DNA from: Planctomycetota bacterium
GTDB lineage: Bacteria; Planctomycetota; UBA8108; UBA1146
Reading direction: 5' to 3'
Assembly: GCA_028825265.1 (NCBI GenBank)
Contig: JAPKAM010000005.1
Location: forward strand, 1 to 63,672
Length of the DNA stretch: 63,672 nucleotides
A model generated the notes under the pieces. The model saw only the letters and a program-made list of their open reading frames with translations. It did not search any database and was not told the DNA's origin. This document shows, one piece after another, positions 92-61,367 of the stretch (position 1 is the stretch's first letter; each line of letters starts with the position of its first letter). The translations under genes were made by a program, and so were the position numbers.

Positions 92-1003
92 ATGACCATC
101 GATCGACGAGATTTCCTGACCGCCGCAGCGGCGCTCGCTGCAGTCAGCACTACCGGAGTTGCCGGAGCCATAGACGGCAGGAACCGATCCGAGTTCCAAC
201 GCGACGATGGATTTATTCCACTTCCCTGGGGAAAGACACGCTTCGCGGTCAATATCGAGATGTGGGGATTCGGCGGAGGTCCTCATCAAGACAGGATTCG
301 TGCGGCAGCAAAGTTGGGATACCCCGCCGTCGAGATGTGGCCGTGGCGAGGAAAGAACATCGCCGAGATTCGCAAGGCGTGCGACGAGACCGGAGTCGAA
401 GTGGCACAGTTCACGGCTTGGGGTTTTTCTCCCGGCATGAATGATCCGAAGAACCACGATCAATTTGAGAAAGAAATCGCGGCCTCCATCGAGACGGCAA
501 AGAAACTGAAGGCTCGAAAGATGACGGTGGTCGGAGGCAATGACCAGCCCGGAATGACCCAGGAGCAGATGCACGAGAACATCATCACGGGTCTCAAGAG
601 AGTCGCTCCGATGGCCGAAGCGGCCGGCGTGATGTTGATTCTTGAGCCGATGAATATCCGGGTCGACCACAAGGGGCACTGCCTCTACGGCAGTCCGCCA
701 GCGGTGCGAATCTGCAAGGAAGTGAATTCGCCGATGGTCAAGATCAACTGGGATCTCTACCACATGCAAATCACCGAGGGCGATCTGTGTCGTCGTCTGA
801 GAGAGGGTTGGGACCAGGTCGGATACCTGCAACTGGCGGACAACCCTGGTCGTAGGGAACCGGGTACCGGCGAGATCCAGTACTCCCGCGTCTTCAAGGA
901 GGCATGGGACCTCGGCTACCGTGACTTCATTGGACTGGAGTGCTCACCGAGTGTTGAAGAGGCGCTCGCTACCGAGCGTGTCAAAGCGGCGGACGTGTGG
1001 TAG
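92..1003 (+). CDS. Tat-exported hydroxypyruvate isomerase-like TIM-barrel protein (Hyi / xylose isomerase-like family)
   Basis: GAGGAG RBS before ATG 92; twin-arginine signal DRRDFL; Hyi motifs LEPMN, NWDLYHMQI, QLADNPGRREPGTGEI. Confidence 0.85.
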   Translation: MTIDRRDFLTAAAALAAVSTTGVAGAIDGRNRSEFQRDDGFIPLPWGKTRFAVNIEMWGFGGGPHQDRIRAAAKLGYPAVEMWPWRGKNIAEIRKACDETGVEVAQFTAWGFSPGMNDPKNHDQFEKEIAASIETAKKLKARKMTVVGGNDQPGMTQEQMHENIITGLKRVAPMAEAAGVMLILEPMNIRVDHKGHCLYGSPPAVRICKEVNSPMVKINWDLYHMQITEGDLCRRLREGWDQVGYLQLADNPGRREPGTGEIQYSRVFKEAWDLGYRDFIGLECSPSVEEALATERVKAADVW

Positions 1004-1013
1004 GGAAACTATA

Positions 1014-1997
1014 TTGATAAATCTCAAGTCTCTTCCGTTGTTGTTGTCGCTGCTGTTTCTGATGGCGATGGCAGGACCGTTACTTCCAGACCTTCATGCG
1101 CAGGACAGCATTCTCGATGAGTTGGAAGCGGAAGACCCCTGCTCCATCGAAATATATTCTGCTGTGAAACGTTTTCAGCCCGGGGTTCCATTTCAGGTCG
1201 GTGTGCTGATCAAACCGTTACCCGGCTGGCATGGCTACTGGCACTCCTCTCGCGATGGGGGGGATGCACCGGAAGTGATCTGGTCGTTGCCAGATGGATG
1301 GAAGGTCAGCGAGGCGGACTATCCAGTACCGACGCGGATGGTCGAGGCGGGCAACCTGATCTCGATCGGCTACAGCAAACCTTTTCTACTGCGATTTCGC
1401 ATCACTCCCACGGTCCAGGATGATGAGGAAACTCCAGCCAAGATCAGCATCCCGGTGAAGGTGATCTGGCAGGTGTGCGAGAAGACCTGTATCTACGGGG
1501 CGAGTGAAACAGAGTTGAGCATCTCCGCAGGTGGAGCACCGATCCCCATCGATACGGGTGGAAGTACGATCTTGGCCGGCTGGAAAGACCAGTATCCGAT
1601 TCCCGCAGCGAACGCACGAGGCTTCCACTTCGAGCACCAATGGATTCCAGAACAGGGAACAGAGCGGGTTCGAAATGGCACATGGGTGGTGCGCTGGGCG
1701 CGACAGGGTCACGATCGACGCCCAGCAGTTCCGCTGCAGTGGATCGCTTTTCCTCATGGCATCGAAGCGGGCTTGATCTCCGAGGCGAAAGTGCAGAAAT
1801 GGAATCCGGAGTCGACTATCGAGAATGGTCGCCGCATCGGATGGCAGGTTCATTTCCAGTTGAAGGAGTTGGGCTTGGGCTTTCATCCTGGGTTGCTGGG
1901 TGTCACACTGGTACCCAGTCCAGGAAAGGCTGCAGGGCCGGTGCCTGGGATGCCAGCGATCACTTTCGCTGGGCCAGAGTTGAAGAATCAGAAGTAA
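1014..1997 (+). CDS. Exported DsbD/ScsB N-terminal (alpha) domain protein, without the membrane domain
   Basis: Hydrophobic signal peptide; GWHGYW...G.AP.V.W motif and WQVCEKTC dithiol typical of DsbD-N; start uncertain (TTG 1014 follows the upstream stop; ORF open from 921). Confidence 0.75.
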   Translation: MINLKSLPLLLSLLFLMAMAGPLLPDLHAQDSILDELEAEDPCSIEIYSAVKRFQPGVPFQVGVLIKPLPGWHGYWHSSRDGGDAPEVIWSLPDGWKVSEADYPVPTRMVEAGNLISIGYSKPFLLRFRITPTVQDDEETPAKISIPVKVIWQVCEKTCIYGASETELSISAGGAPIPIDTGGSTILAGWKDQYPIPAANARGFHFEHQWIPEQGTERVRNGTWVVRWARQGHDRRPAVPLQWIAFPHGIEAGLISEAKVQKWNPESTIENGRRIGWQVHFQLKELGLGFHPGLLGVTLVPSPGKAAGPVPGMPAITFAGPELKNQK

Positions 1998-2049: not shown

Positions 2050-2625
2050 ATGAGAAGCGTCGCAACCATCTTGGCCCTAGCGCTCTGCTTGTGCAGCGGT
2101 GTTGCATTGCAGGCCGACGATGAAAGTGTCAAGAAGGCTCCTCCCGTGCTGTCTTTCGATCTGAAAGATCTCGACGGCAAGTCGGTCAAGTCCGCGGATT
2201 TCAAGGACAAGTACATCGTGTTGGAGTGGACCGAATCCGGTTGTCCTGCGGTGAAGCCTCTGTACAAGGCCAAAAAGGTACAGAAGTTGGTTGCCGAGTA
2301 CAAATCCAAGGAAGTTCAGTGGTTCTCCGTTTGCTCGACGAAGCACAACACCGTCGAGGGACTCAAGAAATTCACCCAGCAATACGGAGTCGAGCACAAG
2401 ATTCTTACCGACTTCGATGGCAAGGTGGGAAAGAAGTTTGGAGCCAAGAGAACTCCGCATGTCTTCATCCTGAAGAATGGCAAAATCTTCTACCAGGGCG
2501 CATTCGATAACCGCCGTTCGGGAGAAAACTACGTCAAGAAGGCGCTCGATGAGTTACTCGCCAACAAAGAGGTCTCGACACCTCGTACCAAGCCATACGG
2601 CTGAACGGTGAAATACGCGTCGTAG
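2050..2625 (+). CDS. Exported AhpC/TSA (PrxL-like) redoxin, predicted selenoprotein (TGA 2602-2604 = Sec)
   Basis: Signal peptide; VLEWTESGCPAV, GAKRTPHVF and YQGAFD motifs; reading through TGA gives PYG-U-TVKYAS-TAG, matching the family C-terminal PYGCxVKY motif; SECIS-like hairpin follows. Confidence 0.85.
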
Positions 2626-2643
2626 TTCACGACGCATTTTCGC
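2608..2643 (+). promoter_or_regulatory. Putative bacterial SECIS element
   Basis: Stem GCGTCGT (2617-2623)/ACGACGC (2629-2635), loop AGTTC with G at position 2; loop starts 19 nt after the UGA; lower stem GTGAAA/TTTCGC. Confidence 0.75.
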
Positions 2644-2666: not shown

Positions 2667-2700
2667 AGGGCCCGGACGTGATCACGTCCGGGCCCTTTTT
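2667..2700 (+). terminator. Rho-independent terminator
   Basis: Perfect palindrome AGGGCCCGGACGTGATCACGTCCGGGCCCT followed by a T run. Confidence 0.85.
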
Positions 2701-2781
2701 GCATCGCTGGTACTTTCCATAGGTCGGTCCTTGGTCCACGAGTGCCGAAGGTGCATTCTGGGATCACTGATGGGAGTTCGA

Positions 2782-5685
2782 ATGTCACCAATCCGCTTGA
2801 TGATCTTGTGGCTCAGTTGCTTGGTCGGTTTCTCGACTCCGGTCGAAGCCGGCGCGAGAATCCAGGAAGATGGTTGGGTTCCGGTGCCGGTTCCTGGGCG
2901 CTGGGAAACCGCTTTCGGAGATCACGATGGCCACGGCTGGCTCAAGGCATACCTGATTCTTCCAGAGAGTTGGGCGGGAAAGGATCTGGTGCTCCACGCC
3001 GGCCGAATCGATGATCAAGATGAGACCTTCTTCAACGGCGTCAAGATCGGTGAAGGATCGGTTTGGAATCAAGATCGGATCTATGCCATCGATGCGACGT
3101 TGGCCCATGCAGGGGCCAACTTGATTGCCATTCGGATCAAAGATACCGGTGGAAGTGGCGGCATCACCGGCGGGTCCCCGTTCATCGAGGGACCGGACGG
3201 CCGTATCCGCCTCGATGGAGGAACCTGGCTCGGCCGCAAGGGAGACGACTTCTCCTGGAAGGAATGGCCCGTTCCGCAGGGGTCGTTGCAGGCGATGCTG
3301 ATGGCACGGCAGTATCTGGCCACCCAGGGAGCGGGAGCCCGTGCACCGGGTGGCGGAATGCGAACCTCGGGCGAGGCGACCCGACCGAGCGGAGATCTGA
3401 TCCTCTGGTACCGGACACCGGCCGGGAAAAATTGGAACGAAGCGCTTCCGGTCGGCAACGGCAGACTGGGAGGGATGGTGATGGGGGATCCCCGTCACTG
3501 GAAAGTTCAGCTCAATGAGGACGGAGTGTGGGCCGGGACGCCTGCCAACCGTGTCCGTAGGGGGGCGCATCTCCATCTGGACCGGGCACGCGATCTCATC
3601 TTTTCGGGAGAGGTGGTTGAGGCACAGAAACTGTTGCAGGAGCAGTTCATGTCGCCGCGTATGACTCGCTCATACCAGACACTGGCGGATCTGGAAGTGC
3701 ATCAGGCGGATATCGAAGAGTCGATCGATTACCGTCGCTGGCTCGATCTCGATGAGGCCCAGGTGACCGAGGAGTTTACCTCCGGGGGGGTCCAGTATCG
3801 CAGAAGAGTGATCGCCAGCGGGCCGGATGATTGCGTGGCAGCGATCCTCGAAGCGGATCAACCCGCATCGATCTCCATCGATACCAAACTATCGAGAGAG
3901 ACGAGCGGTTCATTGCTTGAACCGATCCGTATCGATGGGAATCGCGCCTGGATGCGATTTGGCGGGCGGGCTTCCCACGGCGAGAGTCAGTTGGGAGCCT
4001 ATTTCGAGTGCCGGGTCAGTATCGTGGTTCAAGGCGGGCTACTGAAGATGAACGGTCCCGGGGTCACGATCGTGGGAGCGGATTCAGTGCTTTTCATGAT
4101 CACGGCAGACAGCGATCCGGATGGAGAGTTCGACCGGGAGAAGTTGGTTCTGCTGCCGGATGACGATGAAGAAATCGTCGATCCTTCCAGTCGATACCAG
4201 CAATTCAAACAGCGCCAGAGTGCCGATCATCGATCGCTGATGGATCGAGTGTCGTTGTCTCTAGGCGGCGAGTCGCGTCGCGCAATCCCGACCGACCTGC
4301 GACTTCAAAGCGTTCAACAAGGGCAGCAGGACCCCGATCTGATTGCGACCTTCTTTCAATTTGGTCGCTACTTGCTGATCAGTTCATCTCGACCAGGATC
4401 TCTTCCCGCCAATCTTCAGGGCATCTGGAATCCTCACATCTCTGCGCCTTGGAACAGTGACTATCACATCAACATCAACCTTCAGATGAATTACTGGCCT
4501 GCTGAAGTGGCGAACTTACCTGAGTGCCACGAACCGCTCTTTGAGTTCATCGATGCGCTGGTGGTACGGGGAGAAGAGACCGCCAGAGAACTCTACAATG
4601 CTCCCGGTTGGGTGGCGCACCACACCAGTGATGTTCATGCCTTCACCGTGCCGATCGGGAGAACGGTATGGGGATTGTGGCCGCTGGGCGGGGCATGGCT
4701 TTGCCGTCATCTGTGGGAGCACTATCAGTTCGGGGGAGATGAAGAATTCTTGCGTGAACGTGCATGGCCAGTCTTGCGTGGCGCCAGCGAGTTTTTCTGC
4801 ACTTACCTGGTCGAGGATCCTGCGACAGGAAAGCTGGTCAGTGGTCCATCTTCCTCTCCGGAGAACTCCTACAAGACTCCCGATGGCCAGGTGGCAGATG
4901 TCGGGATGGGAAATGCGATGGACCAGGAAATCATCTGGGACCTGTTCAGCATGACTCTCAACAGTGCCAAGGTTCTGGGTATTGAAGATGATCTGGTGAA
5001 CACCATCCGTGAGACCCGAAGCCGGATGGCCAGGCCCAAGATCGGCCAAGACGGTCGTATTCTCGAATGGTCACGACCATGGCAAGAAGTGGAGAAAGGG
5101 CACCGCCACATGAGCCACCTTTATGCCCTGTATCCCGGTGAGGAATGGACCGCTGAGCAAACTCCTGAACTGGTGAGCGCTGCTCGTCGTTCGATCGAAT
5201 TTCGCCTCGCCAATGGCGGTGGGCACACCGGTTGGAGTCGAGCCTGGTTGCTCAACTTCTTCGCCCGGCTCGGGGAGGGCAACACTGTGGAGGAGAGTCT
5301 GCAGAAACAACTGTCCAAATCGACTCTCCCCAATCTGCTCGATGATCACCCACCCTTCCAGATCGACGGTAATTTTGGGGCGACCGCGGGAATCGCTGAA
5401 GCTCTGGTCCAGTCTCATGGGAAAGTGCTCCGATTGCTTCCTGCACTTCCCGATGGCTGGGCCGACGGTGAAGTGGCTGGATTACGTACCCGATTTGGGG
5501 TCGAAGTCTCCTTGCGCTGGAAAGATGGTTCCATCGAGTGGGTTCAGCTGGTTCCATCTCGTGATGTTTCATTGATCCTGGCGAGTGATGGGCAGAAACT
5601 GGATCTGACGCTGGTCCAGGGGAAGACCACTGAATTACGGACCAGCCAAGGTCGCCTGATTTCAGGTGAGCCGGTCGGAGAGTGA
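2782..5685 (+). CDS. GH95 alpha-L-fucosidase with N-terminal galactose-binding-like beta-sandwich
   Basis: GH95 motifs [64 protein letters not shown]; signal peptide; start uncertain (ORF open from 2731). Confidence 0.92.
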
Positions 5686-5746: not shown

Positions 5747-7858
5747 GTGAATCCCCGCAACCTGATCATCGCATGTACCATCTTGCTCGTGATCGTCACG
5801 GCGATGGTGTTGTTTCTTCCTGACGATGGGCCGCTGAGCGGCGAGATCGATGGGCCGTCCCAGGATCCATCCACCCGCAGTGGCCAGGGCACCTCCTTCG
5901 ATGAAGGCGGGACCAGCAGCCGTGATGGAGGGGCAAACACATCTTCCAGAACTGACGGGTCGGGCCGCTCTGATGAAGACTCTTCCGCTAGCGCCGTAGA
6001 CACCACCGGTACTCGGTTTCGCAATCAAGGAACAGGATCGACCGGAGGATCTTCTGCAGTCGAATCGGGAGCGACTTCTTCCGGGCAGGATCCCCTGTCT
6101 AACAGTCGCGGAGCCGCGGATTCTCGAGGTTCGGGGAATCAGGGTTCGAAGCCTGGCTCTCGAAGGGGAAATCAGGCTTCTGCTAGCCAACTTCCAGATG
6201 GAATGGTGCGGATCAACGGTGAAGTGATGCTGGAAGATGCTCCCACCGAGGTGTTGGATCAATTGTCTGGCCATCTTCAGATCGGATCGCTGGCTGGTTC
6301 TCGTTCGATCCCGGTGATTCGTGGACGGTTTCAACTGGTCACGCCGCAGGAGGGTGCGATTCAGTTTTTTGGTGCGATCATCGAAAATCGTCCTGCCCGG
6401 GTGGTGGCTCCGATCGGCATCATCAAATCTCGAGCCGCTGGAGTGGTGCGGGTGATTCTCCGATACGACGCACTCACGATGCTCTCCCTGAAATCAGCCG
6501 TTACTGGTGAAGAGTTGACCGATGTCGAGGTGATCCGAGTGCAGGATTACTCTCGTAGTTCACTGCCTCACCCGGGATGGGCGTTGCCGGAAGATCCCCG
6601 GATCGTCTCGCAGCAAAGTCCGGTCGCGCTCGACGGGCGGATCGGGTCGATCGGATCCGCGGTGGCGCTTCACGCCCGAGCTCTAGGTCACGAATGGCGT
6701 CGGATCACCGTCGATCTGGTGGCCGGGGGTGAACGAGAACTGAGCCTTGAGCAGAGTGGGACCATCTCGTTGAGATTGTTCGGCGATACCGAGAGAGAAG
6801 GAGTGGTTCTGCGACTGCGAGAGCAAGGTCGAGCGGGATCCCCTCATTCGGAAGTCACCGTCACCGGTGTCTCGACCCAGCAACTCGAGGGACTGTTGCC
6901 GGGGTCCTGGATTGCAACATTGGAATCGGGCCACTGGGCGCATCAACCAGAGGTCTTTGATGAGATCTCCTTCGAATTGACGACCGAAGATGTGCTCGAA
7001 CTGGATTTGGAGATTCCATTCGATGATGAAGAGAGAGTCGATCTGGCGGGCTCCGTGTTCATTCCCGAGGGTTGGCAACTGGACAACTTCTCGGTGAGGA
7101 TCAGACCCACGGGTCCTGGTAGCGACCCCATCAACGACACCATCGAGGTGCAAAGTGTTTCGATGGTCAGCACCTCGATGGCCGGAGGCTTCCTCTGGGA
7201 ATGGGGTCCAGTGCAGGTGAAACAGGGGAGCCACGGTATCCTGGTTTTACCTGTCGGGGTCGGAGACCTGTTTCAGGTCGGCGAAGATGGGTTACTGGAT
7301 GCCAACATCGAATTGCCCGCACCTGTCGACATCTCGGTGCAAACGGTGCTTGCCGATGGAACGGGCGTGGCCACACCGAGTTTGATTCGGTGGGCTCCGG
7401 TTCGTCCTCCCGGAACCCCGGGTGCTGGGGCGATCCCGGTCGGATCGGCCACCAACGGTTTCTTCCAGTTCCAGGTGCCGGTGGGGGCCGTGTTGATCTC
7501 CTGCTCCGATGTGGCGTACCGACCCACGCATCAACAAGTTCAGGTCACTCTTTCGGGACCCAACGAGTTCACATTGCCACTAGAGCCCGCAATGGGGATG
7601 CGGCTCTTCCTCGATGAGAACGGAACTTCAGTTCCGTGGGATCTGGCCTGGCATCCCGCAGTGAGTGCACAGGGGCATAACGGCACAGTGGTGACCCGCG
7701 GCCGTACCGGGAATGGCTACCGGGTGCTGGTCAGTGCACCAGGGCTGTATCTCGTCACCGTTCCCGAATTGACAGGCTTCATGCCTGTCGACCCCTTTGT
7801 CGTACAGGCCATCGAAGGCAATGTCGTCGAAGAACTGATCCAACTCGAATCGGAGTGA
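5747..7858 (+). CDS. Membrane-anchored hypothetical protein with S/G/T-rich linker and beta-sandwich (carboxypeptidase-regulatory-like) repeats
   Basis: GGAGG RBS before GTG; N-terminal TM helix; low-complexity linker; 703-aa ORF. Confidence 0.65.
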   Translation: MNPRNLIIACTILLVIVTAMVLFLPDDGPLSGEIDGPSQDPSTRSGQGTSFDEGGTSSRDGGANTSSRTDGSGRSDEDSSASAVDTTGTRFRNQGTGSTGGSSAVESGATSSGQDPLSNSRGAADSRGSGNQGSKPGSRRGNQASASQLPDGMVRINGEVMLEDAPTEVLDQLSGHLQIGSLAGSRSIPVIRGRFQLVTPQEGAIQFFGAIIENRPARVVAPIGIIKSRAAGVVRVILRYDALTMLSLKSAVTGEELTDVEVIRVQDYSRSSLPHPGWALPEDPRIVSQQSPVALDGRIGSIGSAVALHARALGHEWRRITVDLVAGGERELSLEQSGTISLRLFGDTEREGVVLRLREQGRAGSPHSEVTVTGVSTQQLEGLLPGSWIATLESGHWAHQPEVFDEISFELTTEDVLELDLEIPFDDEERVDLAGSVFIPEGWQLDNFSVRIRPTGPGSDPINDTIEVQSVSMVSTSMAGGFLWEWGPVQVKQGSHGILVLPVGVGDLFQVGEDGLLDANIELPAPVDISVQTVLADGTGVATPSLIRWAPVRPPGTPGAGAIPVGSATNGFFQFQVPVGAVLISCSDVAYRPTHQQVQVTLSGPNEFTLPLEPAMGMRLFLDENGTSVPWDLAWHPAVSAQGHNGTVVTRGRTGNGYRVLVSAPGLYLVTVPELTGFMPVDPFVVQAIEGNVVEELIQLESE

Positions 7859-40615: not shown

Positions 40616-42181
40616 TTGTGGCTGCCGCAGGATTTGCCCGAAGTGGAACGGAGCATCCGATGGTCAGGGGGTTCATTGAATGAAGCAACCCGCATCATCG
40701 GTCGGTCCCGCAGTTCGGACCTCGTGATTCCCTCGGCTAGAGTTTCACGTCGCCACTGTTCCCTGATTCCCTCGGGAGATGGTTATGTCCTACAAGATCA
40801 TGACTCTCGCAATGGAATCTGGGTCGAGGGGAAAAGGGTAAAATCCTCCTATCTGAAGAAGGGTGATCGTTTCGCCGTCGGTAGTTTCCGCGTTCGTATC
40901 TGTCGGGACGGCACCTTGGAACTGGAAGGCAAGGTCGATCCGAAGCAGATGATGTTGCGCGAGAAAATCCGTCATGACATTCCGGCGATCATTTCTATCT
41001 TGGTCTGCGTGGCGATCGTCCTGGGCATTTACCTGGCCCAAGAAGAGGTATCAGCACCAAAGAAGTGGCTGAAAGAACCGGTCCTTGCCGATCCGATGCC
41101 CCTCTGGACCCCATCGCAAGAGGATGGTCCCCAACTAGCGCAAGGCGAAGTTCGCGATGGGGATACTGAGGCAGGCAAGCAACCAGGTACCGATGGAGTC
41201 GCCGAGTTCGAATCCGCGGACGAGACGATGGGTTCGCCGGAATGGGTCACCACCTCGGGTCGGATCTGGACTCTGGATGAGCTGCTTGTACTGGCAGAAG
41301 CCATCGATGGGACGGACCGAACAACGGCGGAGTCTGACGCCACTGGCGAGTCTCCGGACCCTGCGAAGGTCACCGAGGTGGGCCAGTTGGAGTGGCCTCC
41401 GGCAGGGAATTCATCAGCGGATTCATCAGAGAATGCATGGGCGGAAGTGGAGCGCCTCAGGCGCGACAAGCGAACTCGCCGAAGGCGTGGACACCTCCCG
41501 ACCGCGGTGGGAAGTGGTGCGGCGCAAGCGACGACTTCGAATACCGCGGTGGTCCCATCGATGAGTTCTCCGGAGTGGCTCGAACTGGGGCGCGCGGCAT
41601 TGGGCTCGTATCACCTGCCCGAACGGGTGCTTCCCGACTTTAGCCTGGCCATCGAGTCGCTCGGTGAAATCGGAACCGAGGAGTCGTGGCAGAATCTCAA
41701 TCTTCTGAGGATCGAGGCGAAGACCCTTCTTCGATCGGTGGCTTCGAGGGCGAAACAGATCGGAAAGATGTACGGTCATCTCGATCGAAATCCTGACGCT
41801 CCACTCTCCGGACAGGATCGCCGAGAGGCAGAATTGGCCCTCAACCTGCTCGTTCTGATTCAAGAGCAGATGGAAGTTTTGCTCGATGCACGAGATCTGG
41901 CCTTTATTGAACTGACACACCCGGAACAGCCGGATCGGCTGGGATTTGCCCTTTCTGTGGCGATGGAGGACAAAGACGACGAACTGCTCGACCTGGTGCT
42001 GGAGCAGATGCACTCCAGTAATGCCGAACAATTGATCCCTGCGCTGATAAAAGGATTGAAAGTTCCCGCTGCAACCAGGAAATTGAAGGTACAGGCGACT
42101 CTTCAGCAGATCACCGGACAGAGTTTTCGGTCCGGATCTGAATGGGAGAACTGGTGGAGAAACAAGGAAGGAAGTCGATGA
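40616..42181 (+). CDS. FHA-domain membrane protein with extracytoplasmic helical (HEAT-like) C-terminus
   Basis: IIGRS...VSRRHC...D..SRNGIWV FHA motif, one TM helix, C-terminal LQQITGQ..W..WW; start uncertain. Confidence 0.8.
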   Translation: MWLPQDLPEVERSIRWSGGSLNEATRIIGRSRSSDLVIPSARVSRRHCSLIPSGDGYVLQDHDSRNGIWVEGKRVKSSYLKKGDRFAVGSFRVRICRDGTLELEGKVDPKQMMLREKIRHDIPAIISILVCVAIVLGIYLAQEEVSAPKKWLKEPVLADPMPLWTPSQEDGPQLAQGEVRDGDTEAGKQPGTDGVAEFESADETMGSPEWVTTSGRIWTLDELLVLAEAIDGTDRTTAESDATGESPDPAKVTEVGQLEWPPAGNSSADSSENAWAEVERLRRDKRTRRRRGHLPTAVGSGAAQATTSNTAVVPSMSSPEWLELGRAALGSYHLPERVLPDFSLAIESLGEIGTEESWQNLNLLRIEAKTLLRSVASRAKQIGKMYGHLDRNPDAPLSGQDRREAELALNLLVLIQEQMEVLLDARDLAFIELTHPEQPDRLGFALSVAMEDKDDELLDLVLEQMHSSNAEQLIPALIKGLKVPAATRKLKVQATLQQITGQSFRSGSEWENWWRNKEGSR

Positions 42182-43161
42182 TGATTCCTGATTCATTCAA
42201 ACGATTGAGTCTCATTCTGTCTGGCACGCTGGTGCTCAGTTTTAGTGGTGATCTGGCAGCCGGGGATGGCGACGACACTCGGATCACTCCTCGATCGGTT
42301 CCGAAACTGACGGGGACCGAGGTGGCCAAGCGGGTGGACCTGATGCTGTCTGGGGTCACCTGGCATGGCAACTTCGACGATGCGATGGCCAGCGCCGTGG
42401 AACAGGGTAAGCCACTCTTCTGGCTCCAGATGGTCGGAAAAATCGACGGCGGTTTGTGAAGCGCTGGGCATTCATTGAGAGCCGTGACGCTCTCAGAACC
42501 AAAAGTGATCGAAGTACTGAAAGATCAGTTCGTTTGCGGTTGGAGAAACATCAAGGGTCAAGAATCCTACGCAGGAAAGTCCCATGACCATCCAGTAGAG
42601 AGCACTGCACTTCAAACCAGTAACGGTGCCGGGGGACGCAATGTGCAGATGCTCTTCATCTCCCCTTCGGGGAATGTACTGCACTGTTTGCCAGGATACT
42701 GGGATCCGGATGGAATGATGCACGAGATCAAGTTCATCCTCGAACTGGCCAAACTGGAAGGCTCTGATCTGCCTCTGCTGGAAAAGAGAGACCAGTTCCA
42801 GCTTTCGCATTTAAATCATGCCGCCAACCATTCGGAGCAGATGGTTGCTGATTCACATCTGCAAGGCTTTGACAAGATGCGAGAAGACCAGGTCCAAGGC
42901 AGCGATTTCCGCCGGAAGACCGATGGAGATGTGATACGCACCGTCGATCAGGTGATGCATGAGCGAATGGCCCGTCGACCGATGATCTCGATCGAACAGT
43001 TCGATATCGGAACAGTGGTCGATTACGGCACTCGTTTTTATGATAAGGGCGGAGACGGTTGTTGCGATCTCGACAAGGGCAAGCCGACGGCTCCCAAGCG
43101 CATGAAGCCACCGGCCGGTGGCTACAAGAAATCAGGTGGCTGGAAGAAATCTGGCAGATGA
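42178..43161 (+). CDS. Exported thioredoxin-fold, Selenoprotein-N-like protein, predicted selenoprotein (TGA 42457-42459 = Sec94)
   Basis: ORFs 42142-42459 and 42475-43161 share a frame and are separated only by one TGA; joined sequence W...A...GKPLFW...GKIDGGL-U-SAGHSLR.VTLS...V...L...FVCGW is a continuous Trx-like fold; SECIS-like hairpin follows; ATGA overlaps at both ends. Confidence 0.82.
42471..42498 (+). promoter_or_regulatory. Putative bacterial SECIS element
   Basis: Stem TGAGAGC (42476-42482)/GCTCTCA (42489-42495), loop CGTGAC with G at position 2; loop starts 23 nt after the UGA; TTC/GAA extension. Confidence 0.72.
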
Positions 43162-60911: not shown

Positions 60912-61367
60912 ATGCAGGCGGAGATCTTCATGCCGGGATCCACTTCCCGTGGGACTCGCTATCGGGTTCTACTCGCCGATGACGATGCGGGGGTTCGTGG
61001 CAGCCTGACCGCCTTGCTCGATAGTGCGGGGTTTGAAACCGAAAATGCAGGGGGCGGCGTCGAGGCGCTGGAATTGCTCTGTCGGGTTCAGTCACCGGCT
61101 TCCGACGAACGGGTTGAGTTCAGCCCTTTCGATTTCCTGGTGCTGGATGTGCATATGCCAGACCTGCCCGGAGTCGAACTGCTGAGAAGGATCCGGACCG
61201 AGTTTCGCTGGCAGTTGCCGGCACTGTTCGTCAGCGGCGAAGCGAGTGCCGCACTGAGAAAAGATGTAGAAGACGCAGGTGGTTTCGCATTGTTGCCGAA
61301 ACCGGTCGAGCCAGATCTATTCCGGAGCAGTGTCCGGGAACTGGTTCAAACCTTGCTGAAGAACTGA
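60912..61367 (+). CDS. Single-domain response regulator
   Basis: VLLADDD, LVLDVHMP, L.KPV receiver motifs; start uncertain. Confidence 0.88.
   Translation: MQAEIFMPGSTSRGTRYRVLLADDDAGVRGSLTALLDSAGFETENAGGGVEALELLCRVQSPASDERVEFSPFDFLVLDVHMPDLPGVELLRRIRTEFRWQLPALFVSGEASAALRKDVEDAGGFALLPKPVEPDLFRSSVRELVQTLLKN

Follow-up and report, generated by a model that had tools for sequence, protein, structure and literature searches.

The DNA analyzed here, referred to below as the window, is a stretch of 63,672 nucleotides from a Planctomycetota bacterium (assembly GCA_028825265.1, contig JAPKAM010000005.1, positions 1 to 63,672), and its forward strand carries a gene for a redoxin of the thioredoxin fold, predicted to be exported, whose reading frame is crossed by a TGA at codon 185. 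Judged from the sequence comparisons presented below, this UGA is very probably decoded as selenocysteine (Sec, U) by the standard bacterial mechanism. The first-pass annotation of this DNA had proposed Sec185 at the position of the C-terminal cysteine of the family, and the proposal was backed by alternation of Sec and Cys in a single alignment column, by a covarying hairpin downstream of the UGA, by the presence of selA, selC and selD in the genome and by public contigs covering the codon.

The open reading frame (ORF) was read from the ATG at 2050; a second candidate start, also an ATG, lies at 2032. Around the TGA the frame reads AAG CCA TAC GGC (within TKPYG), TGA at 2602-2604 and then ACG GTG AAA TAC GCG TCG TAG, exactly the TKPYG-TGA followed in frame by TVKYAS and a stop that had been annotated. 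With Met1 placed at 2050 the TGA is codon 185, six codons remain between it and the TAG, and the product with TGA read as U has 191 residues. The N-terminal segment resembles a signal peptide for export to the periplasm; homologue N-termini were hydrophobic and the predicted local distance difference test score (pLDDT) of the AlphaFold2 (AF2) model was low at residues 1-30. The features of the gene, including a selenocysteine insertion sequence (SECIS)-type hairpin, are as follows.

2050..2115, forward strand: predicted signal peptide of the Sec secretion type, MRSVATILALALCLCSGVALQA, read off the sequence
2050..2601, forward strand: Redoxin/AhpC-TSA (thioredoxin-fold) coding region to Gly184, based on Pfam and the AF2 model; the part annotated by gene callers
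2242..2244, forward strand: Cys65 codon TGT in the motif C-P-A-V, an invariant column in the homologue alignment
2602..2604, forward strand: in-frame UGA, very probably Sec185, aligned with the conserved Cys of YG-C-x-V-K-Y
2605..2625, forward strand: translated tail TVKYAS and true stop TAG (2623-2625), based on in-frame conservation
2617..2635, forward strand: bacterial SECIS-type hairpin, based on the bacterial SECIS (bSECIS) criteria and covariation

The Sec/Cys column in homologous proteins

The protein was searched against 5.8 billion proteins, and the counts given here refer to the 120 matches (clusters) listed. A YGC-x-[VI]-[KHN]-[YFW] motif was present near the C-terminus in 96 of these homologue clusters, in line with the family ending PYGCxVKY named in the first-pass annotation. 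The closest 22 clusters (54-91% identity) all stopped exactly at [PA]YG, and the remaining two were partial or other. An end shared at one residue across such a range of identity points to gene callers meeting a conserved Sec codon. The invariant columns of alignment A2 (54 sequences) were C65, D121, G124, G127, T135-P136, G150, D153 and Y183-G184, with the Cys/Sec column directly after the last pair; the N-terminal cysteine, Cys65, is thus retained as had been annotated.

The Sec/Cys column in the DNA of relatives

The read-through protein was also searched against 34 genomes of the same order, its own genome included. A match was obtained in 33 of them, and 32 of the 34 best matches held exactly one TGA and reached approximately residue 190. 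The 32 TGA-bearing genomes spanned two families (f1 and f2) and 41-99% identity, the exceptions being one genome with the Cys form only (G001) and one with no match (G006). All 30 order loci retrieved read [PA]YG-TGA-x-[VIA]-[KHR]-[YF] in frame, and the tails seen in them included TVKYAS*, SVKYKKS*, SIKFKKS*, TVKYRR* and RVKYPKAAPAS* (the asterisk marking the stop). Among 401 genomes sampled from the phylum, 74 gave 82 match rows at E <= 1e-25, 32 with a TGA (14 in the order of the window and 18 outside it) and 50 without. In twenty further TGA loci (the 18 outside the order and 2 inside) it was always the YG-U column that held the U, and the N-terminal Cys position held it in none of the 50 TGA loci. 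Two loci, L064 and L065, did not match the motif pattern and were left out of later counts.

The 50 TGA loci and 16 TGC/TGT loci used one common alignment column; TGA, TGC and TGT therefore alternate at a single position with conserved residues after it, the pattern for which the first-pass annotation had suggested looking. The TGA loci were chosen for retrieval and the genomes are related, so that these locus counts are to be read as contrasts and not as frequencies. Codon 185 was TGA in all 50 Sec-form loci (45 distinct 30-mers) and never TAA or TAG. Minor-allele fractions at positions 1, 2 and 3 were 0.18, 0.02 and 0.44 for the V codon following the TGA and 0.11, 0.02 and 0.33 for the K codon, and such third-position-weighted variation in the tail is a coding signature. 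The hairpin cannot explain this conservation, since in the clade of the window the V and K codons lie 5' of its stem.

A maximum-likelihood tree of 66 domain sequences, computed with the Sec/Cys column masked, required nine state changes between Sec and Cys, at least seven of which were forced by well-supported branches. Repeated exchange of Sec and Cys at a single column is typical of true Sec sites. Adjacent tandem paralogues, one of the Cys and one of the TGA form, were noted at G126:C40:73534-74905 and G241:C304:4804-6200. Most genomes of the order also carried a second, distant redoxin paralogue (for example G000:C200:733-1212) with 27-36% identity and no in-frame stop.

The true terminal stop of the 50 Sec-form loci was TAG in 44, TGA in 5 and TAA in 1, compared with approximately 23% TAG among long frames genome-wide. 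In RNA form (U-A-G) this stop closes the stem of the SECIS hairpin and opens its loop, and the choice of stop codon consequently appears to be constrained by RNA structure. Two loci, L086 (G303:C51) and L087 (G241:C304), have a second TGA immediately after YG-U-x-V-K-Y, so that one codon would mean Sec and, four codons on, stop; in both, a SECIS-type hairpin begins at or just past the second TGA.

A SECIS-type hairpin overlapping the terminal stop

The hairpin consists of a perfect 7-bp stem, GCGTCGT (2617-2623) paired with ACGACGC (2629-2635), and the loop AGTTC (2624-2628). Its stem begins 12 nt and its apical loop 19 nt past the TGA, and it extends over the two final sense codons and the stop into the 3' untranslated region (UTR). 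The 7-bp stem and AGUUC loop of the first-pass annotation therefore stand, but the 19 nt given there as the distance to the stem is the distance to the loop. Folded in isolation, the hairpin has an energy of -9.6 kcal/mol.

For covariation, 17 distinct sequences from 25 core-clade loci were aligned on the terminal TAG. The 7-bp helix was paired in 99.2% of cells, compared with 24-49% in slid controls, and six of the seven pairs varied on both sides, as in GCGTCGT/ACGACGC, GCTTCAT/ATGAAGC, AAGTCGT/ACGACTT and GCCGGT/ACCGGC. The covariation score was 0.686 compared with 0.194 in shuffles, none of 500 shuffles reaching as high, and the loop A-G-U was invariant in the core-clade alignment.

The bacterial SECIS model given in PMC13188914 allows loops of 3-9 nt and upper stems of 4-16 bp, and it calls for a G in the first two loop positions, a distance from UGA to loop of 16-37 nt and a minimum free energy of at most -7.5 kcal/mol. 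The window hairpin (7 bp, AGUUC, 19 nt, -9.6 kcal/mol) lies within all of these limits. Implemented strictly and bulge-free, the test was passed by 39 of the 50 TGA loci and by none of the 16 Cys loci, and a looser version (6 or more stem pairs within 6-30 nt) by 43 of 50 and 2 of 16, respectively. The bacterial SECIS that the first-pass annotation had suspected was thus recovered as a covarying element that the Cys forms lack under the strict test. An Rfam scan of 2450-2800 at E <= 10 returned no SECIS family and six matches, all below their gathering scores; the best of them, VrrA (33.1 bits compared with 50), extended over the hairpin and the terminator described below. All six were judged to be due to chance.

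Selenocysteine machinery and sequencing support

The same assembly encodes tRNA-Sec (selC; 70 bits, anticodon TCA), selA (527.5 bits) and selD (349.6 bits), all on contig C47, where they are clustered on one strand (C47:7443-10095, reverse). The selD gene has an in-frame TGA of its own (SCAG-U-AAK) with a hairpin approximately 20 nt past the UGA. No selB gene adjoins this cluster. At the 57% GC of the genome, a listing of C47 frames with TGA read through was too noisy to be informative.

Logan contigs from runs X2, X4 and X6, which belong to two studies, cover 2602-2604 without any difference there. One of the covering contigs comes from a co-occurring strain that differs at 17 other places, almost always at third codon positions. 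Run X2 may be the source sample and is thus not independent; neither X4 nor X6 is flagged as a possible source. The first-pass annotation had allowed for reads showing TGC or TGT; the public contigs of both studies show TGA. The X2 and X4 contigs of both co-occurring strains stop at 2625, inside the hairpin, and a different contig resumes at 2605, probably reflecting a break of the assembly graph where the strains diverge past the SECIS hairpin.

Protein family, fold and redox motifs

The protein matched the Pfam families Redoxin (3.4e-13) and AhpC-TSA (8.4e-13). Only weak sub-threshold matches were obtained among NCBIfam models (ResA, 41 bits compared with a cut-off of 170), none of which was a dedicated or selenoprotein-specific model. 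The AF2 model had a mean pLDDT of 91.4, with the C-terminal blocks at approximately 90-97 and a short strand at 185-186. Its best fold matches in the PDB were 3u5r, 2ywo/2cvb and 2ywi (TM 0.74-0.75 over 170-174 columns), followed by periplasmic reductases of the ResA, DsbE and Etrx types (TMq 0.50-0.62). Profile matches to 2ywi (5e-29), 3u5r (2e-25) and 2cvb (9e-20) were aligned from CP[FY]V through IGCxIKW. The three PDB chains end in IGCSIKW, IGCNIKW and IGCTIKW, the counterpart in the window being YG-U-TVKY.

By sequence, the window protein is a member of this 2ywi/3u5r/2cvb redoxin group, the structures of which were deposited as uncharacterised and which probably corresponds to PRX_like1 (cd02969) of CDD. 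Both hallmarks of the group, an invariant Cys at the first CxxC position and the Cys of a C-terminal G-C-x-[IV]-K-[WY], have their counterparts here. Cys65 aligned with the first Cys of WCPPC in 3kcm (thioredoxin CxxC), and the CxxC-equivalent motif most often had Val at the position of the second Cys (among 121 sequences, CPFV in 63, CPAV in 22 and CPYV in 7). Some relatives with a complete CxxC (CPWC, CPYC or CPVC) still kept YG-U or YG-C, and YG-U was kept in relatives with CPWC, CPYC or CPAC.

The motifs of better known classes were not found in the protein. The peroxiredoxin motif PxxxTxxC (defined in part in PMC13188914), whose peroxidatic Cys occupies the second-Cys position of CxxC, has no equivalent in the window sequence W-T-E-S-G-C65-P-A-V68, which lacks a T at -3 and has Val at the second-Cys position; the family consensus at the N-terminal Cys is LEWxNxxCPFV. 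Nor is there a WCxxC site of the TlpA/ResA/CcmG kind, which sits on a thioredoxin fold with a Redoxin-type insertion: the fold is shared, the window motif being C-P-A-V.

An upstream DsbD_N gene and the proposed mechanism

The redoxin gene follows another gene of the same strand at a distance of 53 nt.

921..1997, forward strand: upstream gene with a DsbD_N domain, based on the PF11412 profile match (E 3.4e-10, 40.4 bits compared with a cut-off of 25); probably co-transcribed with the redoxin gene

In 29 of the 30 order loci (two of them partial at contig ends) an orthologue of this gene precedes the redoxin gene on the same strand, L043 being the one without, and upstream orthologues were also present in L054 and in 7 of the 16 Cys-form loci from other families, a count that leaves out 20 short loci. 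With numbering from the GTG at 921, its protein has an invariant C186-x3-C190 and a WH.YW block in alignment A3. Translation probably begins downstream of 921, beyond position 1003 where the preceding gene ends, as suggested by stops in the leader of the L030 locus. A 777-aa ORF on contig C133 of the genome encodes a DsbD_TM protein. In Gram-negative bacteria DsbD-alpha reduces thioredoxin-fold partners such as CcmG, DsbC and DsbG, and by analogy the DsbD_N protein and the redoxin look like an extracytoplasmic reductive relay.

The steps envisaged are the following. SelB with Sec-tRNA(Sec) is very probably recruited by the hairpin at 2617-2635 and decodes UGA185, a step strongly backed by the sequence comparisons; only six codons follow the UGA, which is why the hairpin overlaps the TAG and the 3' UTR. 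Cys65 and Sec185 would then form a selenenylsulfide/selenol-thiol redox couple. In the periplasm the redoxin may be kept reduced by the upstream DsbD-alpha-like protein through its CxxxC, which in turn would draw electrons via a membrane conduit of the DsbD type, and the reduced redoxin may act on an oxidised periplasmic substrate such as protein disulfides, sulfenates or a peroxide. A point to be held against this scheme is that the link between the redoxin and the DsbD_N protein is suggested by synteny and analogy.

The two redox residues could share the work in either of two ways. The assignment we favour, by a narrow margin, makes Sec185 the substrate-reactive centre that is recycled by Cys65 (or by the CxxC of some relatives). 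Sec almost always marks a redox-active residue, and in most characterised selenoenzymes it is the one that reacts with the substrate. The slight lean towards Sec185 derives from the Sec/Cys exchange, which marks this residue, and from the CPWC relatives that keep YG-U.

The opposite assignment, which was the view of the first-pass annotation, has Cys65 attack the substrate and Sec185 resolve, replacing the missing second Cys of a CxxC. The alignment of Cys65 with the nucleophilic first Cys of CxxC and the Val that most members have at the second-Cys position are in its favour, as is the treatment of the C-terminal Cys of 2ywi-type templates as resolving: in PMC3091736, 2ywi was chosen as a template because its Prx domain carries a C-terminal Cys, regarded by the authors as a resolving one. 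Many accepted selenoproteins are, moreover, of the CxxU type (PMC13188914), and for the same reason the statement of the first-pass annotation that Sec at a resolving position would be the opposite of its usual placement was too strong. Against the assignment, relatives with CPWC, CPYC or CPAC keep YG-U, so that residue 185 is no simple stand-in for a second Cys, and the usual role of Sec named above also runs counter to it. Attack by Cys65 is a serious competitor, which we nevertheless regard as the less probable of the two.

The fullest form of our interpretation is an undescribed selenoprotein family, widespread among marine Planctomycetota, in which Sec185, carried on the structured C-terminal YG-U-x-V-K-Y, would be the attacking centre of a relay from the DsbD-alpha-like protein to the Sec-redoxin. 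Taken as a whole this combination is put forward tentatively, its chances being slightly below even.

Other readings of the UGA

Several observations weigh against decoding of the UGA as Sec. TGA is the commonest ordinary stop of the genome (1045 of 1647 long frames), and its invariance at codon 185 is for that reason supportive and not decisive. The genomes compared are kin and not independent samples. The 65-nt context of the hairpin gave z = -1.6 relative to shuffles, which for a single sequence is weak by itself, and with such an unremarkable local fold the case rests on the comparison with relatives. Among the TGA loci, 11 of 50 failed the strict bulge-free bSECIS test. The window hairpin is followed by the T-rich ATTTTCGCTT and was labelled terminator-like by the consensus scan. 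Finally, selB was not found in the assembly by TIGR00475, PF09107, PF09106 or tblastn with the SelB of a congener.

With respect to the last point, the best TIGR00475 match in the assembly was an EF-Tu-like 402-aa gene, the SelB wing domains PF09106 and PF09107 had no match there, and tblastn with the congener SelB matched other GTPases only. A 645-aa selB candidate on contig C93 was rejected as LepA-like in sequence. The sel genes expected by the first-pass annotation were thus recovered as far as selA, selC and selD are concerned, selB being the one not found in this assembly. The gene scored above cut-off in 32 of the 34 order genomes, including all eight congeners, and the assembly, in 200 contigs, has a completeness of 90%; the absence of selB is probably an assembly gap.

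If the TGA were an ordinary stop, the redoxin would end at Gly184 with its C-terminal Cys lost, and the hairpin would act as an intrinsic terminator or stabilise the mRNA. The gene calls of every source do end at YG for the 22 close clusters, and the stop preference of the genome, the T-rich run and the missing selB all fit such an end. It is difficult to reconcile with an x-[VI]-K-[YF] that is kept in frame past the TGA, 5' of the stem and with variation at third positions. The T-run was not conserved in relatives, in which a further, GC-rich hairpin follows the SECIS hairpin, and a separate strong terminator is present in the window as well.

2668..2700, forward strand: probable intrinsic operon terminator, GGGCCCGGACGTGA/TCACGTCCGGGCCC, a 14-bp perfect palindrome followed by TTTTT, read directly from the sequence; absent from the output of the consensus scan for hairpins and terminators

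In addition, the invariant A-G-U of the loop, the agreement with the SECIS model and the lack of such a hairpin in all 16 Cys forms speak against an ordinary stop, and codon 185 was never TAA or TAG in 50 loci even though their terminal stops vary. We consider an ordinary stop very unlikely.

Read-through of the TGA as an amino acid other than Sec, for example as near-cognate Trp or Cys stimulated by the hairpin, would by itself account for the conserved tail and would be compatible with an assembly without selB. It is specifically an invariant redox Cys, however, with which the codon aligns, the geometry of the hairpin is that of a SECIS (G-U in the loop), and the alternation across the tree is between Sec and Cys and not between Trp and Cys. 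With selC, selA and a Sec-type selD in the genome and selB in eight of eight congeners, this explanation appears marginally less probable again than an ordinary stop. Nothing beyond the bare in-frame stop speaks for a private nonsense mutation, for a pseudogene or for an error of sequencing or assembly, and these were ruled out for practical purposes by the TGA in 32 of 34 order genomes and in 18 matches elsewhere in the phylum and by the contigs of two studies, a second strain included, that were unchanged at 2602-2604.

Neighbouring genes and a second candidate selenoprotein

Three other genes near the pair had no evident redox link: 74-1003, encoding a xylose-isomerase-like TIM-barrel protein with a twin-arginine translocation (TAT) signal; 2731-5685, encoding a glycoside hydrolase of family GH95 (984 aa); and 5747-7858, encoding a 703-aa protein with no Pfam match.

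A heuristic scan of the window for a TGA followed by a hairpin gave 20 matches, mostly noise, of which only those at 2602 and 42457 stood up. The latter lies in an ORF at 42142-43158 (forward strand) with 105 open codons before and 233 after an in-frame TGA at 42457-42459. The TGA stands in the context GKIDGGL-U-SAGH, a hairpin follows 15 nt past it, and the N-terminus of the product is signal-like. Only weak profile matches were obtained for it (Thioredoxin_7, E 0.089; VPGUxxT type 2, 15.6 bits compared with a cut-off of 275). A match was present in 17 of the 21 genomes searched (27-100% identity), and all 17 rows held at least one TGA. From these sequence features, 42142-43158 is a probable second selenoprotein gene. 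Among the other scan matches, the one at 61365 followed a response-regulator-like ORF and would add an extension of 16 codons.

Comparison with known systems

Table 1 of PMC13188914 (2026) contains 119 prokaryotic selenoprotein families and subfamilies. Its thioredoxin-fold AhpC/Redoxin entries are Prx (TxxU), Prx-like (UxxC/UxxU), cd02970 (UxxS), the Redoxin family (UxxC), thiol-disulfide isomerase-like (UxxC), UGC-TlpA, Prx-SUH (CxxU) and VPGUxxT, and PMC9312934 and PMC1088965 likewise give UxxC for Prx-like and the Redoxin family. No entry of that table has Sec at a C-terminal YG-U, and no description of a C-terminal YG-U redoxin was found in the literature, a survey that did not extend to supplementary tables such as S9 of PMC4807772 (Planctomycetes selenoproteins). 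As far as could be checked, a Sec form of this orphan redoxin family with Sec outside a CxxC-type motif is apparently new.

Should the assignment of Sec185 be correct, the proteins in public sources ('redoxin family protein', 'peroxiredoxin') are truncated at Gly184 and lack their functionally marked residue. The exchange of Sec and Cys would then point to the Cys of G-C-x-[IV]-K-[WY] as a key residue of a family with three structures and no assigned function, and, provided that Sec185 is also the attacking residue, it would show which residue is catalytic throughout the 2ywi/3u5r/2cvb family; a candidate electron donor is offered by the conserved DsbD_N neighbour. A Sec form in nearly every genome of a marine planctomycete order would add to the use of selenium by ocean bacteria, and a bacterial SECIS would be able to overlie the true stop, an arrangement that gene finders do not expect.

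The closest known proteins are 2ywi (Geobacillus kaustophilus), 3u5r (Sinorhizobium meliloti SMc02350) and 2cvb/2ywo (Thermus thermophilus), which resemble the window protein over their whole length in sequence and fold. They share with it the C-P-[FY]-V type of motif at the start of helix 1 and the C-terminal G-C-x-I-K-W, with Cys at the position occupied in the window protein by Sec. The alignments with 2ywi, 3u5r and 2cvb start near the N-terminus of the chains (residues 12-20), and 2ywi and 2cvb carry an extra Cys three residues upstream (CNHC-P).

Prx-like thiol:disulfide oxidoreductases (PF00578, UxxC/UxxU) and the other entries listed above are also bacterial Sec-containing AhpC-TSA/Redoxin folds that were found by Sec/Cys homology, and such proteins are frequent in marine metagenomes according to PMC1088965. 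In those proteins Sec lies in or next to the helix-1 CxxC-type motif, whereas the window protein has Cys there and Sec 120 residues further on in YG-U.

Sec only a few residues from the end is also a feature of UXX-star and KCU-star (PMC13188914, Table 1), which databases truncate as well and which set a precedent for a bacterial SECIS that, with Sec so close to the C-terminus, must reach past the stop into the 3' UTR. The folds and motifs of such C-terminal-Sec families differ from those described here, where the tail x-V-K-Y is a conserved and structured part of the domain (pLDDT approximately 90-97) and six residues follow Sec. Mammalian thioredoxin reductase has a near-C-terminal Sec in GCUG.

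The DsbD pathway offers the nearest parallel to the gene pair, in that a DsbD_N protein with a Cys pair stands beside a ResA/CcmG-like fold in a genome with a DsbD_TM protein. Unlike in that pathway, DsbD_N is located on a separate secreted protein with C-x3-C and an extra C-terminal region, and the presumed acceptor has a distal Sec in place of a CxxC.

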